The notes below the pieces were generated by a model that did no database searches, was not told the origin of the DNA, and saw nothing but the letters and a program-made list of their open reading frames with translations. 64,000 bases of DNA from a virus. Below, one piece after another: positions 21,085-31,522 of the stretch (position 1 is the stretch's first letter; each line of letters begins with the position of its first letter). A program made the position numbers and the translations under genes. Where the stretch lies: positions 32,001 through 96,000 of IMG/VR virus record IMGVR_UViG_3300023179_000016, one strand, 5' to 3'.

Positions 21085-22020
21085 ATGCGAGTTACTCCTG
21101 AGCAAATAAAGAAGTATCTTGATATGTATGTTATTGGCCAAGATCAAGCAAAAAAAGCCTTATCTGTCGCTGCATATAATCACAATAAGAGAGTTAATTC
21201 TAGCGGCAACTTGAAGAAATCAAACGTGTTGTTAATCGGCCCTACTGGGTCAGGTAAGACTTATATGGTAACACTATTGGCGCATATGTTGAATGTAAAG
21301 TTCATATCAGTTGATGCCACGCAGTTTACTAGTTCAGGCTATGCTGGAAGAGATGTCGAAGAAATAGCGTTCGAGATAATGTCAGCATGTGACGGTGACG
21401 AGAGCGAAGCTGTAAAATCTATAGTGCACATAGATGAAATAGATAAGATAAGAAAAAAGACCACACACAATGGTGTTTCAGATATAAACGGCGTGGAAGT
21501 TCAACAGGCGCTATTAAAGATGATAGAGGGTACAGATCTAAGTTATGCATCCACCGGATCCAAAACGGACCCACATGATAGAAAACTAAACACAAACAAT
21601 ATCATGTTTATATGTTCCGGTGCATTTGTTGGTCTGGAAAATTCCACGTCGCAGTCTTTGGTGAAATTTGGGATAATACCTGAATTTTTGGGCAGATTTT
21701 CTACTATTGCTACGTTGAATTCCTTGAGCGCATCAGATTTAAAGTCGATAATATTAGACTCTAAAGGATCAATTCTTGAATCTTACAAGGAGTGGTTCTC
21801 GAGTGAGGGCATAGAATTATCTGTTTCTGAGGATGGTTTGGATTGTATTGTAGAGAGAGCACTACTAAAAAACGTGGGGGCGAGAGGTCTACACGGCACT
21901 ATAGATGAAGCTCTACTTAATGCTCAGTTTGAAGCTCCAGGTCTAGTAATAAAACCTAAAGCCTTAATCATAAACAGAAATATGGTAGAGACTGGCATAG
22001 CAAACTGGGTATATGCTTAA
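21085..22020 (+). CDS. clpX: ClpX-like AAA+ unfoldase lacking the zinc-binding domain and IGF loop
   Basis: YVIGQDQAKK, KSNVLLIGPTGSGKT, DAT, DEIDKI, VQQALLKMIEG, PEFLGRF, GARGL. Confidence 0.9.
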   Translation: MRVTPEQIKKYLDMYVIGQDQAKKALSVAAYNHNKRVNSSGNLKKSNVLLIGPTGSGKTYMVTLLAHMLNVKFISVDATQFTSSGYAGRDVEEIAFEIMSACDGDESEAVKSIVHIDEIDKIRKKTTHNGVSDINGVEVQQALLKMIEGTDLSYASTGSKTDPHDRKLNTNNIMFICSGAFVGLENSTSQSLVKFGIIPEFLGRFSTIATLNSLSASDLKSIILDSKGSILESYKEWFSSEGIELSVSEDGLDCIVERALLKNVGARGLHGTIDEALLNAQFEAPGLVIKPKALIINRNMVETGIANWVYA

Positions 22021-22757: not shown

Positions 22758-23058
22758 TAACTCAGATGTTTCTGAGGGCTCTTGCGATTGCGGAGCTCAT
22801 GCTACGGGCTCAGACATGCACTCTGAATGGTGTGGCGGGTTAAAGTCTCCGCAAGACAGAGCAAAGGATCTTCAAGATAGACTTAATTCTATACAAGGGA
22901 TGAAGGGCGTGAGGCCTCACGATGTCGATAAAAAGGATTACGAGAAATGGGCGGAGACGGGAGACGACGGCGCTATTCATCATTACATGGGCAAAGACAT
23001 GAGAGAGATCTCTAGAGATGGTATGTGCACAAAATGCAAGGCCAAAAATGAGAGCTAG
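22750..23058 (+). CDS. +1-frame continuation with CDCGAH...HSEWC zinc motif
   Basis: open frame from the A9 tract; the first ATG (22816) lies inside the Cys/His motif. Confidence 0.55.
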   Translation, partial: YVNNSDVSEGSCDCGAHATGSDMHSEWCGGLKSPQDRAKDLQDRLNSIQGMKGVRPHDVDKKDYEKWAETGDDGAIHHYMGKDMREISRDGMCTKCKAKNES

Positions 23059-23072
23059 CCGCTGCATTTGGC

Positions 23073-23103
23073 GGCGTAGCGGTGTCAGCCGCGCGGCTGA
23101 CAC
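23073..23103 (-). repeat. GACACTGCTACGCC box (1 mismatch) fused to a 22-bp palindrome
   Basis: ggcgtagcggtgtc; gtgtcagccgcgcggctgacac at a convergent junction. Confidence 0.7.
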
Positions 23104-23114
23104 ACTCGAGCAAG

Positions 23115-23333
23115 TTATTCCTCTTCAGTGTACGGGTTGGAGAAGTCCAGCGCGCCAATAAATCTGGTGGCTAGTACAACTTTAGGTCTTGGAATAACCT
23201 CAACCTCTTTCACGTTCACCCTAATTTTCTTGTGATTATACAGCTGCACCAGCAGATTTTCATCTCCAATAGAGTTTAGAACTTTTGCTTCGGACCCTGA
23301 CCAAATGCCGGACTTAATCTTGATCTTCACCAT
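23115..23333 (-). CDS. KOW/SH3-like small protein
   Basis: VKIKIKSGIWSGSEAKV resembles a KOW motif. Confidence 0.5.
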   Translation of the reverse strand: MVKIKIKSGIWSGSEAKVLNSIGDENLLVQLYNHKKIRVNVKEVEVIPRPKVVLATRFIGALDFSNPYTEEE

Positions 23334-23755: not shown

Positions 23756-24106
23756 TTAGGGAAGATAAGAGAAATGTATCTGCTCTTCTCTCACTTCGCG
23801 GCTGCACTCGCCGCATTTAGTTTCTCTGAGCAATACGGGATCTCGCTTGATTCCGGTGCCGCCGCAACTCTTGCAGACATTAGATTTTAAGCTGCTGATC
23901 TCCGCTCTCAGCGCTTCATTCTCGAGCTCCAATAGTCTCACATGCCACTCGCGGCACGCACATGCGTTGTGGTGGGAAGTGCACTTCGGAATTTGTCTCA
24001 GTTCTTGCGGTAGAGAATTGAGATCGCACTCGCAATCCAGCACTAGATTGCAACCTGGACACGCCTCATTATACATATAATCACTGTTGGACTTGTATGA
24101 CATCAT
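23756..24106 (-). CDS. Cys-rich protein with coiled coil and DnaJ-like CxxCxGxG
   Basis: CPGC, CTSHHNACAC, LENEALRAEI, CKSCGGTG. Confidence 0.65.
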   Translation of the reverse strand: MMSYKSNSDYMYNEACPGCNLVLDCECDLNSLPQELRQIPKCTSHHNACACREWHVRLLELENEALRAEISSLKSNVCKSCGGTGIKRDPVLLRETKCGECSREVREEQIHFSYLP

Positions 24107-25850: not shown

Positions 25851-26333
25851 TCACTCGCCAGACGTTGCCGTCGGAGCAAACTTGGCAGCGAGCTCCGGGG
25901 GCAGAGCACTGAGGTCGATCGTCGGCTGCTTGGACCGAGCGATCTCGGCGACCCGGGCATCGATGTGGGCCTGGACCTCAGCCCGGTCAGTGACGTCGGT
26001 GAGCGTTCCGAGCAGGGCTCGAAGAGCCTTGAGCTGCGGATCACCAGAACCAGAGCGAGAGCCAGGGTTCTTAGCCACATATGCGACCCCACCGTTCAGC
26101 CGCTTGTCCTTTCGGAGCCAGTTGCTCTGCAGGCCAGAGACATAGGCCTTCAGCTGCTGGTCGGTGAACTCCGTATCGAGCTCGATAGCTCCACCGCGGA
26201 ACCCCTCGAACAGGATCTGGTTCACCATGGCCCGCTCCTCACGGGACATCTCGACTGCACTCGAGAACTCGGTAGTTCCCTTGACGTTGACGACTGCACC
26301 ATAGACTGCTTCTTTCTGACTCATCTTGCTCAT
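25851..26333 (-). CDS. QKEAV...NWLRKDxRLNGG family protein
   Basis: paralogue; GGAGG RBS. Confidence 0.88.
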   Translation of the reverse strand: MSKMSQKEAVYGAVVNVKGTTEFSSAVEMSREERAMVNQILFEGFRGGAIELDTEFTDQQLKAYVSGLQSNWLRKDKRLNGGVAYVAKNPGSRSGSGDPQLKALRALLGTLTDVTDRAEVQAHIDARVAEIARSKQPTIDLSALPPELAAKFAPTATSGE

Positions 26334-26369: not shown

Positions 26370-26534
26370 GATATCGGTCACCACGACCGGTATCTTCACC
26401 TATGGGGTGTTCGGTACTCACTCAAAACTGGCTACTTCCGCGTCTGCTGTGGCTACCTACTGCTTGCCGCCTGCCTCCACTGGGGAGAGCTCCACTCGCG
26501 CTACTCCCTGCTCTCTACATCATTACCACCTAGA

Positions 26535-26545
26535 TATATGTTCGG
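26535..26545 (-). promoter_or_regulatory. CCGA-N3-TATA motif
   Basis: CCGAACATATA; no convincing ORF follows. Confidence 0.6.
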
Positions 26546-26737
26546 GATAATGGGATGTCGTGTAAGTCGCTGATACTATTGGTGGGGAAGGTTGGTGTGG
26601 AAGGGGTGTAACGGTGCCCACCTGAGTCACACTGAGTCTGACCCGACCTGCACGTCGCACTCACCGAGACTCCCCGATACCCGTCCAGACAGCCGATCGG
26701 GCTCGTGAGGTCATAGGCTCGGCTGCACCCGACAGCC

Positions 26738-26751
26738 GGCGTAGCAGTGTC
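26738..26751 (-). repeat. GACACTGCTACGCC box
   Basis: exact copy. Confidence 0.8.
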
Positions 26752-27322
26752 GGCGCGCGCTGAAAAGCAGTGGGTAGGGCAAGCAGCCGCTATTATATAG
26801 CCCGGCCAGGGCCATGTGCTGCCAGATCCCTACCCACGGACGCTTGTTGATCCCTTACTGCCTGAGTCTAGCCGTCGTCAGACAGGTCACCAACCTGTTA
26901 CGACCTCTAGATCGTTTCGGCCTTGGAAAGACTCACGTATCCGGGTACGGTTTTGAGAGCCACCCATCATACATATTCAGCAGGAGACAGAACCGTACAA
27001 GATTCTCCTACCGGTTAGACAATACATCCCGGTACTTCCGTCTAACAAGAGTACCGGATTTACCCCTCACTTTACCCGGACTAGGGACCGGTCACCGATA
27101 AGTGTCCTGGCTAGGACCACCGGTGAGTGGAAAACTGACTTACTTTCTGAGGCAGATGATCGGGAGCAGCGCGCGTGTTTCTGCGCCGAGAAGAAAAGCT
27201 ACGAGCGCATGACAGAAAAGCGTCTAATCCTACCAAGGCGGGCGCCGGGAATTGACCCGCCCACCCAGCGACCGCCCGATAAACCGCTGTTTTTTGAGCC
27301 TAGCTAACCTCCGGGGCGTGGC

Positions 27323-27592
27323 TCATTTCCCCTCCAGCGCGGCGCGGGCAATACTTGGCAATGCACAATCACAGGACTTCCCAAATTGAATGTCGCACCG
27401 TTCATGGTGAATGGTCAGATATTGCTTCAGCGCCTCCCGAAGCCTGGCGTTTTCAGCGCTGACTTCCTCGATTGCGACACGATACCCAGCCAAAAACACT
27501 TCTATGTCAATGTGCATTACAGATGCGTCTTTCTGATAGGCTGGGAATCGCTGCTTTAGATATTCTTCTGCCAGTTTTTCGGCTCTAGTCAT
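27323..27592 (-). CDS. ENARLREAL...ARAALEGK array protein
   Basis: start MTRAEK via ATGA overlap; HHERC...CDC insert. Confidence 0.75.
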   Translation of the reverse strand: MTRAEKLAEEYLKQRFPAYQKDASVMHIDIEVFLAGYRVAIEEVSAENARLREALKQYLTIHHERCDIQFGKSCDCALPSIARAALEGK

Positions 27593-27792
27593 TTCCCCTC
27601 CAGCGCGGCGCGGGCGATCGATGCGCCACAAAGACAACCAGCGGTATAGTCACAACCTTCATCATGGGCGGCAAATCTTTCCAGCGCCTCCCGAAGCCGG
27701 GCGTTCTCGGCTTCCATTTCGGCTCGTCCGGATTCGTAACCCTGTTGCCATCCTGAGCACGTTCCCTTGCATGGGTGATTCAGCTTGTTCAT
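27589..27792 (-). CDS. ENARLREAL array protein
   Basis: HPCKGTCSGWQQGY head; HDEGC...CLC insert. Confidence 0.78.
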   Translation of the reverse strand: MNKLNHPCKGTCSGWQQGYESGRAEMEAENARLREALERFAAHDEGCDYTAGCLCGASIARAALEGK

Positions 27793-28019
27793 TACTTCCC
27801 CTCCAGCGCGGCGCGGGCTTCAATTACTTCCTGTCTAAGTTCATCCCAAGCCTGACCTAGCTCTTCGTCCAGCAGAAGAGCCTCATCCACTTTATTGGTG
27901 ATCTTGCGAAGCGCCTCCCGAAGCCGGGTGTTTTCGGCTAAGAATCGATTCCTGGCCTCTTCAAATCCCCGCAACCACACCAATTCATCCGGACTTCCCG
28001 CCTCAGGTCTTGTGCTCAT
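27792..28019 (-). CDS. ENARLREAL array protein
   Basis: ENTRLREAL...ARAALEGK with a Cys-free insert. Confidence 0.78.
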   Translation of the reverse strand: MSTRPEAGSPDELVWLRGFEEARNRFLAENTRLREALRKITNKVDEALLLDEELGQAWDELRQEVIEARAALEGK

Positions 28020-28233
28020 TTAGTTTCTCCATAACATTGGCAGGGAGCATCTTTTCGTCTTCTAAAAAGACGTAATCGTACCCATCCGCGTGTTTCATCA
28101 GGTCTTCTTTTAACGAGCGAATGTCGGAGCTTATCCACTGTCCTAGAACCTGACCGTCTTCAGTGACACACACACCAACCACGTCCCAACCCGGGCTGGA
28201 CCCAAAGATCGGAAATCCATAAGCCTTCTTCAT
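28003..28233 (-). CDS. hypothetical protein inside the array (no repeat tail)
   Basis: start MKKAYG with GGAGGG RBS supplied by the upstream repeat. Confidence 0.65.
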   Translation of the reverse strand: MKKAYGFPIFGSSPGWDVVGVCVTEDGQVLGQWISSDIRSLKEDLMKHADGYDYVFLEDEKMLPANVMEKLNEHKT

Positions 28234-28565
28234 GCTTCCCTCCCCTCCAGCGCGGCACGGGCTGCACACTGCAGGCACCCCTGGTCGGAATAGCTGCACC
28301 GCTCATCGTGCCCACGGACCATTTCTTTCAGCGCCTCTCGCAGTCGTGCATTCTCAGACCGAAGCATAATTACCTCGTTAAGCCACTGCGGTGGCTCAAT
28401 AATGAGGTAAGACATACCCGCCCTTGTCCCCGGTGGATCGGACAAATGAATTTGTAAAGGCTCTGATGAGGCCAGTACGCAAGCATGGTCCTGAAGCGTG
28501 TTCAGTGAAACTTCTGCACCGCAGCGGGAGCATTTCCCAATTTTGTCGTTTGTAAAAAGGCTCAT
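28230..28565 (-). CDS. ENARLREAL array protein
   Basis: start MSLFTN; CSRC..HAC head; HDERC...CLQC insert. Confidence 0.75.
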   Translation of the reverse strand: MSLFTNDKIGKCSRCGAEVSLNTLQDHACVLASSEPLQIHLSDPPGTRAGMSYLIIEPPQWLNEVIMLRSENARLREALKEMVRGHDERCSYSDQGCLQCAARAALEGREA

Positions 28566-28804
28566 TTCCCCTCCAGCGCGGCGCGGGCGATATTTCCGAG
28601 CGTGCAATCGCAGAATCGAGCAGCGTCCAGCGGTGGGTTATCCCGCGAGGCGCAATCGTGGAAATGCGTGTAAGCGTACTCCTCCAGCGCCTCCCGAAGC
28701 CGGGCATTTTCAGCTTCAAGCTCTTTCATTTTTGTAGTGACTTCTTGGTTATACCGATCGGCAGAATCCAGCATGTCCTTTGTGAGATCCAATTCATCCT
28801 TCAC
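28562..28804 (-). CDS. ENARLREAL array protein (first gene)
   Basis: AGGAG RBS, GTG start; HFHDC...CDC insert. Confidence 0.78.
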   Translation of the reverse strand: MKDELDLTKDMLDSADRYNQEVTTKMKELEAENARLREALEEYAYTHFHDCASRDNPPLDAARFCDCTLGNIARAALEGK

Positions 28805-28993
28805 ACAAACGCTCCTTTCCGAAACTGGGGACTGGCCGCCTTATCCTTTTCCGGAGAGAGTTATGTGTGACACTACTACTCTTCGATGAAGTTTCACGAT
28901 CTTACGCGGCACCGCAGGCACTTCAAGCCTTCTGGGCCATTATATCACACTGTGCGAGATCTGTGGAGCTCTACGTAGGTGAGACTCATGGTA

Positions 28994-30020: not shown

Positions 30021-30488
30021 TCAGGCCTTGAACTTCGCGGCCAGCTCTGCAGGCAGCTGGCTGAAGTCGATGGCGGGCTTCGCGGGCTTGGCGATCTCGG
30101 CACTCCTGAGGTCGATGAAGTGCTGGATCTCAGCCCTGTCGGCCGGGTCAGTCACCGTGCTGAGCAGGGCCTTGAGAGCCTTGATCTGCGGGTCGCCAGA
30201 GCCAGAGCGAGCACCAGGGTTCTTGGTGACCCAGGTAGTCCCGCCGTTGAGTCGCTGGTCCTTGCGGAGCCAGTTGTTCACGAGGCCGACCACGTACTTC
30301 TTGAGCTCCGGCTCAGAGAAGTTGGCCTTGAGGGTGATCTTACCCTCCTTGAACATGGTGACCAGCTCCGAGTGGATCTGGGCCAGCTCAGACTTGCTGG
30401 GCGTGTGAGCTCCGTTAGGAGCGAACTGAGTGCAGAAGCAGCTGACGACATTGAAGACCGCTTCCTTCTGGTTCATTGCTGCGATCAT
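30021..30488 (-). CDS. QKEAV...NWLRKDxRLNGG family protein
   Basis: GGAGG RBS before MIAAMNQKEAV. Confidence 0.85.
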   Translation of the reverse strand: MIAAMNQKEAVFNVVSCFCTQFAPNGAHTPSKSELAQIHSELVTMFKEGKITLKANFSEPELKKYVVGLVNNWLRKDQRLNGGTTWVTKNPGARSGSGDPQIKALKALLSTVTDPADRAEIQHFIDLRSAEIAKPAKPAIDFSQLPAELAAKFKA

Positions 30489-31084: not shown

Positions 31085-31522
31085 TCAGCGCTTGCCGAAC
31101 TTGGCTGCGATCTCTGCAGGCAGCTTGCTGAAGTCGACCTTGGGTCGGTTCAGCTCGGCGATCCGAGAGTCGATGTGTCGCTGGATCTCAGCTCGATCCG
31201 TCGGGTCGGTGATGGTGCTGAGCAGAGCCCTGAGCGCAGTCAGCTGGGGATCATCGACTCGGGAGGACTTGGGTTGGTGATCGACCCCACCGTTCAGCCG
31301 CTTGTCCTTTCGGAGCCAGTTGTTGAGCAACCCTGAGACATAGTTGCTCAGCTCCTTGTCGGTGTACTCCTTCCTGAGCTCGATGCTCCCGTTCCTGAAC
31401 CCCTCGAACAAGACCTGACGGATGGTTCGGGTCTGCTCAGAAGTCGGCTCGCAGACGCCGACTCCATCGAACCCGGTGATCGCGACCACTGCCTGGTAGA
31501 CTGCTTCCTTCTGGTTCATCAT
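31085..31522 (-). CDS. QKEAV...NWLRKDxRLNGG family protein
   Basis: GAGGAG RBS before MMNQKEAV. Confidence 0.85.
   Translation of the reverse strand: MMNQKEAVYQAVVAITGFDGVGVCEPTSEQTRTIRQVLFEGFRNGSIELRKEYTDKELSNYVSGLLNNWLRKDKRLNGGVDHQPKSSRVDDPQLTALRALLSTITDPTDRAEIQRHIDSRIAELNRPKVDFSKLPAEIAAKFGKR

Follow-up and report, generated by a model that had tools for sequence, protein, structure and literature searches.

Mosaicism in phage genomes is usually put down to illegitimate recombination and selection, as conserved boundaries are seldom found, and conserved boundary sequences have been reported to be unidentifiable at most mosaic junctions (PMC3029335). In gp67 and gp68 of Island3, two adjacent mycobacteriophage genes, 18 residues at the C-terminus are shared together with the encoding DNA, and recombination over ~50 bp has been inferred (PMC3029335). 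Another short repeat, the start-associated sequence (SAS) of Cluster K mycobacteriophages, has a 13-bp consensus (GGGATAGGAGCCC) and lies in one orientation 3-7 bp upstream of gene starts, with ATG preferred (PMC3203893). Here we analysed a stretch of 64,000 nucleotides (the window), which comprises bases 32001-96000 of the 153,399-bp linear IMG/VR virus record IMGVR_UViG_3300023179_000016, estimated to be 91% complete. The minus strand of window positions 27323-28804 carries six short translationally coupled genes (named g1 to g6). Five of them, all except g3, follow one plan, head-M1-insert-M2, where M1 is the ENARLREAL segment and M2 is the ARAALEG[K] segment. We consider it probable that the six genes form an operon and that the five belong to a family diversifying by in-frame exchange at M1 and M2. 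The conserved boundary sequences, Island3 gp67/gp68, and SAS are the closest precedents, and the array represents a new form of this idea, placed within genes, with two slots, and very widespread.

The boundary (linker) sequences of the modular theory resemble the array joints as short conserved border sequences proposed to guide homologous exchange. Unlike them and Island3, the array joints lie inside genes, provide two slots per gene, and are met with thousands of times in phages that differ greatly, and one of the two joints also carries the translation signals of the next gene. Boundaries that cannot be identified at most junctions elsewhere are the rule in this family. SAS is likewise an asymmetric, one-orientation repeat near the starts of non-structural genes, with a Shine-Dalgarno core, positions beyond ribosomal RNA (rRNA) pairing, and attachment to genes of different families. 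M2 shares its position and orientation upstream of starts, but the GCCCGCGCCGCGCTGGAGGGGAA of M2 does not match the 13-bp consensus and only the GGAG core is common, which makes this a resemblance and not membership. Furthermore, translation of M2 yields the conserved C-terminal helix of the protein encoded upstream, and M2 marks exchange breakpoints, which are not reported for SAS.

The genes of the array are as follows.
28562-28804, minus: g1, 80 aa; GTG start after AAGGAG; head, M1, HCCC insert (32 aa), and M2
28230-28565, minus: g2, 111 aa; head with CxxC...HxC, diverged M1 DNA, HCCC insert (22 aa), and M2 ending EGREA
28003-28233, minus: g3, 76 aa; no module; ATGA coupling to g2 and a 17-nt overlap with g4
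27792-28019, minus: g4, 75 aa; head MSTRPEAGSPDELVWLRGFEEARN, M1 (ENTRLREAL), Cys-free insert (30 aa), and M2
27589-27792, minus: g5, 67 aa; head, M1, HCCC insert (22 aa), and M2
27323-27592, minus: g6, 89 aa; head, M1, HCCC insert (26 aa), and M2

At four joints (g1/g2, g2/g3, g4/g5, and g5/g6) the stop and start overlap as ATGA or TAATG with GGAGGGG 5-7 nt upstream, and the M2 DNA includes both the Shine-Dalgarno sequence and the overlapping stop/start of the next gene. The exception is the g3/g4 joint, where a 17-nt overlap stands in place of this signal. An earlier interpretation made from the letters alone (the sequence-only reading) had described five small coupled genes with this shared plan, which holds, but it missed the minus strand and the sixth coupled gene, g3. 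Its statement that M2 holds the C-terminus, the next ribosome-binding site GGAGGGG, and the overlapping stop/start is borne out at the four joints, while the M2 of the last gene leads only to a mini open reading frame (ORF). The inserts of g1, g2, g5, and g6 contain the H-x3-C...C-x1-2-C pattern (HCCC), four of five as it had noted, and their lengths were corrected from 18-31 aa to 22-32 aa.

The core copies of the two constant segments were located as follows.
28685-28711, minus: M1 in g1, 1 mismatch to the consensus
28329-28355, minus: M1 in g2, same peptide with diverged synonymous sites
27909-27935, minus: M1 in g4, 2 mismatches
27682-27708, minus: M1 in g5, 1 mismatch
27428-27454, minus: M1 in g6, 1 mismatch
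28568-28588, minus: M2 at the g1/g2 joint, 0 mismatches; ARAALEG codons including the Shine-Dalgarno sequence for g2
28242-28262, minus: M2 at the g2/g3 joint, 1 mismatch (CGT)
27798-27818, minus: M2 at the g4/g5 joint, 0 mismatches
27595-27615, minus: M2 at the g5/g6 joint, 0 mismatches
27329-27349, minus: M2 at the end of g6, with a coupling signal that leads only to the 8-codon mini-ORF

Repeat finding identified M1 as a 38-nt family of five copies with 68-87% identity and M2 as a 31-nt family of five copies with 81-87% identity; the M2 copies are spaced 203-444 nt apart. With up to 3 mismatches allowed, the 21-nt M2 core gave 5 matches and the 27-nt M1 core gave 4, every shuffle gave 0, and the motifs are absent from the rest of the 153-kb genome. 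By this mismatch scan of the cores, the M1 and M2 DNA of the array is 93-100% identical, and the remainder of the genes is unalignable. No head or insert is common to any two genes. Identical-codon pairs number 52 of 86 at M1 and 66 of 70 at M2, against 31.7±5.1 and 21.4±4.3 expected from local codon usage; these statistics take the repeat copies as independent though the M2 copies have common ancestry, which tells against resting the case for exchange on them. Within the array this excess agrees with the proposed DNA-level conservation of both parts including synonymous sites, with the reservation that M1 of g2 has clearly diverged. Two other roles for the repeats were tried and rejected. The octamer GCTGGAGG has 6 of its 11 genome copies in the array but shows no genome-wide pattern expected of a Chi-like site, and it is not the conserved core of the relatives; antisense or alternative-frame ORFs over M2 change frame from copy to copy.

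The five genes seeded a profile (A3) of the family motif, [AS]EN[AT]RLREAL, a variable stretch (~17-45 aa among the relatives inspected), and [IV]A[RK]xAL at or near the C-terminus of proteins of ~55-190 aa. The motif pair is present in g1, g2, g4, g5, and g6 but not in g3, a membership that is partly circular for the five seeds, and relatives align over both motifs. The profile retrieved 555 small proteins from a word-indexed database, and an exhaustive search of 1.84 billion cluster representatives gave 11,470 matches at E≤1e-3 and 109 at E≤1e-10. Most matches extend to the protein C-terminus, and some weak ones are generic coiled coils. Members were found in viral and metagenome contigs of 36-67% GC, and the family is nearly absent from reference prokaryotes, with one 6.9-kb contig of a metagenome-assembled genome among 185,579 species genomes. 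Tandem runs of 2-4 members with the same overlapped joints are common in other viral contigs, the five-member run of the window being the longest seen, and in the array and its relatives alike the 3' end of a gene provides the Shine-Dalgarno sequence and the overlapping or abutting start of the next. The nearest clusters in the ESM Atlas are all unnamed, and viral where taxa are on record, while searches of all six array proteins against Pfam, PHROGs, NCBIfam, and PADLOC yielded only sub-threshold coiled-coil noise. A literature search for the motifs found no paper containing them, and no published basis was found for the statement in the sequence-only reading that short LREAL...ARAAL coiled-coil tails are known from small phage accessory proteins. 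Judged from its sequences, the family is very large, viral, unnamed, and wholly unannotated.

Heads and inserts are reassorted among the relatives and are almost unlinked. A census of 176 family proteins found 156 pairs with a common head and clearly unrelated inserts, 54 pairs with a common insert and clearly unrelated heads, and 4 pairs sharing both, the last count being lowered by the use of cluster representatives, from which near-duplicates had been removed. A dozen proteins carry the g4-type head (MSTRPEAGSPDELVWLRGFEEARN), joined to no fewer than 10 unrelated inserts. Near-identical inserts are carried on unrelated heads in P0008/P0119, P0011/P0095, P0009/P0032, P0042/P0048, P0014/P0083, P0026/P0071, and P0061/P0101, where the pairs involving P0008, P0011, and P0042 were compared as protein only. 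The relations between heads and inserts are reticulate, and the constant co-inheritance of the two, which the sequence-only reading had named as the observation that would speak against exchange, was not found among these relatives.

The boundaries of exchange were resolved in four DNA comparisons, in which the breaks in identity fall within the 3' portion of M1 and within M2. Between the window and another phage (L042), DNA identity of 75-87% extends across g3 and the head of g4 and decays within M1; the insert shows no identity, and M2 is again identical at 17 of 18 positions. The ribonucleotide reductases of these two phages are only 26% identical, against 67.5% for g3 and 86% for the g4 head. 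The g4 counterpart of L042 (g4') and a gene of L045 have unalignable heads, ~93% identity between the 3' half of M1 and M2, and unrelated downstream genes, and the same breakpoint pattern was observed between L022 and L027. For L024 and L027 the whole gene is 97-100% identical, with the right-hand break immediately after M2/ATGA. The few relatives of g3 are located on contigs with g4-type heads, and g3 appears to travel together with this head in other phages.

Across phages, M2 is conserved as DNA. Its exact 23-mer is present in 11 other viral contigs, and a fully degenerate ARAALEGK-TGA pattern retrieved 15 distinct genes with unrelated heads and inserts. In these genes the codons are GCC in 15/15, CGC in 13/15, GCC in 13/15, GCG in 10/15, CTG in 13/15, GAG in 15/15, and GGG in 13/15, compared with background shares of 0.19-0.49 in the same loci; binomial values for these counts overstate the significance because the copies share ancestry. 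GCC CGC GCC GCG CTG GAG GGG is retained in phages whose GC content spans 36-62%. The contig L042, at 36% GC, has AGA, TTT, and GCA codons in its drifted M1, yet its M2 still reads GCC CGC GCC GCA CTG GAG. The Shine-Dalgarno and ATGA signal determines the final 3-4 residues of M2 but does not account for the GCC CGC GCC part. The proposal that both repeats serve as in-frame exchange joints is supported at the family level by the almost unlinked heads and inserts and the four DNA breakpoints, but conservation of synonymous sites across phages is confined to M2. The RNA folds at M2 do not exceed those of shuffles in stability and tend to be less stable (z +0.3 to +2.2), and on these scores an RNA structure occluding the ribosome-binding site was rejected. 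In another phage (L044, 1404-2372), four successive overlapped genes end in ...(G)VKP or IKP, whether they carry the module or not.

Several observations weigh against exchange guided by both segments. Between phages the M1 peptide is kept and its synonymous sites vary freely, and the M1 27-mer was found in no other viral contig of IMG/VR; M1 is thus mainly a protein-level constant across phages, and crossing-over there must use short or patchy identity, or selection for intact proteins keeps the breakpoints in place. The GAG GGG AAA TGA part of M2 is explained by the Shine-Dalgarno sequence and the overlapping start, and the shared tail of L044 encodes GGAGGTGAAGCCATGA, a C-terminal peptide set by the ribosome-binding site of the next gene. 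Order or copy-number variants, for which the sequence-only reading had advised looking, are absent from six near-identical assemblies of the window phage (99.99-100% over the array), which indicates that exchange is infrequent over the time in which strains diverge. As regards the protein function proposed below, Foldseek gave no PDB match at E≤0.001 and the array proteins matched no family model in the four collections searched. A reading in which M2 is a translational-coupling element (Shine-Dalgarno sequence, spacing, ATGA, and a GC-rich lead-in free of structure), M1 is purely a protein motif, and recombination is a passive by-product whose survivors keep frame and coupling deserves serious weight, though we find it rather unlikely. 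It fits the presence of GGAGGGG and ATGA/TAATG at nearly every joint in the window and other phages, the M2 folds, which are as expected of an open ribosome-binding site, the Shine-Dalgarno-encoded tail that non-module genes of L044 also have, the synonymous variation of M1 between phages, and the analogous gene-start repeat of Cluster K mycobacteriophages with its positions beyond rRNA pairing (PMC3203893). However, the most strictly conserved GCC CGC GCC lies upstream of the Shine-Dalgarno sequence, without a known initiation role, and is kept in contigs of 36-48% GC whose M1 in the same gene has drifted to AT-rich codons, and the exchange boundary falls at M2 in every DNA comparison made.

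The remaining explanations are much less probable. If five paralogues had arisen by old tandem duplications and diverged in place, with the constant parts as constrained residues and no shuffling, one would understand why the genes are adjacent with a common plan, why six assemblies show no variation, and why no two array genes have a common head or insert. This account is already contradicted at the family level and is improbable: near-identical inserts occur on unrelated heads and vice versa, sharp nucleotide breakpoints lie beside segments of 93-100% identity, the unit of g3 and the g4 head is ~80% identical in the phage with only 26% ribonucleotide reductase identity, and the M1 and M2 DNA is nearly identical in genes that are otherwise unalignable. 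A dedicated site-specific system, integron-like or like a diversity-generating retroelement, which recognises M2 (or M1 and M2) to capture or rewrite cassettes, is more improbable still. As in an integron, the small cassettes appear promoterless, lie in one orientation, each have a conserved 3' site, apparently share a single upstream promoter candidate, and vary between elements, and the M2 nucleotides are conserved beyond coding need. In contrast to an integron, the joints encode protein and preserve the frame, and exchange takes place within genes as well, at M1. The 91%-complete genome shows no match to tyrosine integrases (PF00589), serine recombinases, resolvases, or reverse transcriptases (RVT_1). 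M2 has no inverted-repeat or hairpin character in the repeat finding, and the mRNA strand around it, folded with RNA parameters, does no better than shuffles as an attC-like site. The inserts differ by whole-segment replacement and in length, not by the adenine-directed substitutions of a diversity-generating retroelement. Least probable of all, and scarcely credible, is that the mosaic results from metagenome assemblers switching between phages at shared short repeats. M2 does form an exact 21-27-mer common to different phages, and short contigs are the source of many relatives, but the usual assemblers finish with a k longer than these repeats, the window array is identical in at least six assemblies by different pipelines, P0014 and P0011 are each found on three contigs, and the shared segments are 93% and not 100% identical, which places the divergence after the exchange and argues against an assembly artefact.

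In-frame exchange at M1 and M2 is thus the reading we favour, and a simple mechanism may be proposed for it. The family would diversify by homologous exchange at the two constant segments, where M1 would divide the head slot from the insert slot and M2 one gene cassette from the next. A cassette joined at M2 would automatically be translated, because M2 encodes the Shine-Dalgarno sequence and the overlapping stop/start. We therefore read M2 as a combined cassette boundary and expression adaptor, and M1 as a protein-level constant that also serves as an in-frame border between head and insert. The exchange would probably be made by general homologous recombination between co-infecting phages. 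A RecA/UvsX-type recombinase gene lies outside the window (G000:C1:129466-130233, locus L053) as a 387-aa open frame scoring 105 bits to PF00154. Of the recombinase families searched in the genome, no other gave a match, RecT, ERF, and AAA_24 included. Because this gene is present and integrase, site-specific recombinase, and reverse transcriptase genes are absent, general recombination is the likeliest route and integron-like or retroelement-like mechanisms are unsupported. That phage recombination can be relaxed and act on short homologies has been documented in other systems (PMC3945230).

AlphaFold2 models built with family alignments gave the same topology twice, with a long helix through M1, a short Cys loop, and a short C-terminal helix from M2. 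The P0006 model has a predicted local distance difference test (pLDDT) score of 84.5 and a predicted template modelling (pTM) score of 0.60, with helices at 23-69 and 77-86, and the P0005 model a pLDDT of 75.1, with helices at 12-45 and 55-64. The protein scaffold may therefore be a helix-loop-helix in which a long helix with ENARLREAL is followed by a variable loop and the short C-terminal helix IARAALEGK, the loop here usually being closed by a predicted His/Cys3 metal site. In the models, the long helix ends with H-x3-C, and CxC occupies the loop preceding the last helix, so that an HCCC zinc site is plausible in terms of topology only.

By eye, the consensus L-xxx-N-xx-L-xxx-L-xx-I appears to fit a d-a-d-a-d heptad pattern in which, as in GCN4, Leu takes the d positions and a single Asn an a position. 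A PDB sequence profile search returned only GCN4-type coiled coils, with weak similarity (E 0.005 to GCN4 chains), and bZIP_1 and bZIP_2 were reached at E ~0.03. The scores stay below the Pfam gathering thresholds (15.1 against 27.6 bits for PF00170 and 14.8 against 22.3 bits for PF07716), only about two heptads are conserved in the array family, and M1 is preceded by acidic or neutral residues (KELEAEN, IEEVSAEN, AEMEAEN). As this pre-zipper segment is acidic and not basic, DNA binding of the bZIP type is not expected. YabA combines a coiled coil with a small C-terminal zinc site, and the array proteins likewise have a predicted coiled-coil helix followed by a short putative Cys/His metal site. 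The PDB match to YabA is weak (E 0.59, coiled coil only), and some relatives are automatically annotated as 'regulator of replication initiation timing'. In contrast to YabA, there is no significant sequence match, and the metal site is optional in the array family, being absent from g4 and many relatives.

The constant helices might form a dimeric scaffold that presents the head and the loop to host targets, as in host take-over or counter-defence, although we put this forward only tentatively. It is equally tentative to see the array as a display system, in which the coding sequence of the dimeric scaffold would be kept as the joints, M2 would be under nucleotide selection as crossover site and expression adaptor, and unrelated phages would share libraries of heads and loops aimed at host proteins such as defence systems. 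A very large unannotated family has boundaries as the rule and in frame, one of them conserved at synonymous sites across base compositions and acting as a plug-in translation signal. The old question of whether short conserved linkers guide modular exchange has thereby become directly testable, and screening would be worthwhile for the thousands of small phage proteins of this family, a combinatorial collection of probable modules for host binding.

The source of the window is a 153-kb uncultured myovirus, whose genome encodes a tail sheath, a ribonucleotide reductase, a ClpX-like AAA+ protein, and three tRNAs. The INPHARED phage collection contains no match to it by megablast or tblastn. The array sits in a block of 51-65% GC (window ~22.9-33.1 kb), the genome being otherwise 33-42% GC. 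This block is identical at 99.99-100% in contigs of at least six samples from three pipelines, and for this reason it is not an assembly chimera. The block can be labelled non-structural on the basis that no structural-protein matches were obtained for the island genes searched. It also contains three paralogues, four promoter-like repeats, and three hairpin repeats, and the two kinds of repeat suggest several small independent transcription units. A consensus scan found no excess of sigma-70-like sites in the region as a whole. Two features flank the array.
28939-28967, minus: sigma-70-like promoter candidate, TCCACA, 17 nt, and TG-n-TATAAT, ~135 nt upstream of g1; 10 of 12 hexamer matches and an extended -10, by consensus match only
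27300-27326, minus: mini-ORF of 8 codons (MSHAPEVS) after g6, opened by the ATGA of the last M2

The mini-ORF is possibly the vestige of a lost downstream cassette. Directly 3' of the array, ~900 nt (window 26400-27322) lack a convincing ORF. The interval from g6 to this stretch yielded no intrinsic terminator, Rfam gave nothing near threshold within the stretch (best Cupriavidus-1, 28.7 against 45.5 bits), and it has no counterpart beside the arrays of the other loci compared. Three independent short contigs terminate inside the stretch, at window 27078-27103.

Elsewhere in the block, the three paralogues (window 25851-26333, 30021-30476, and 31085-31519, all minus) encode proteins of ~150-160 aa with no Pfam or PHROG match; they belong to an abundant, strongly conserved family (1,407 clusters, 65-77% identity), with several copies per contig on contigs of 50-170 kb. 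In DAMP20-1 scaffold_408 (L003 6957-6961), window 23007-23326 is present twice in tandem compared with the window, and this 320-bp copy is either a real duplication or an assembly artefact. A 116-aa Cys-rich protein (window 23756-24106, minus) has a coiled-coil stretch, LLELENEALRAEISSLK, that is loosely M1-like; it lacks M2 and was not retrieved by the family profile. At the border of the island, window 21085-22020 (plus) encodes the 311-aa ClpX-like AAA+ protein without an N-terminal zinc domain, and on the contig of the relative P0011 a 310-aa AAA protein also comes after the array.

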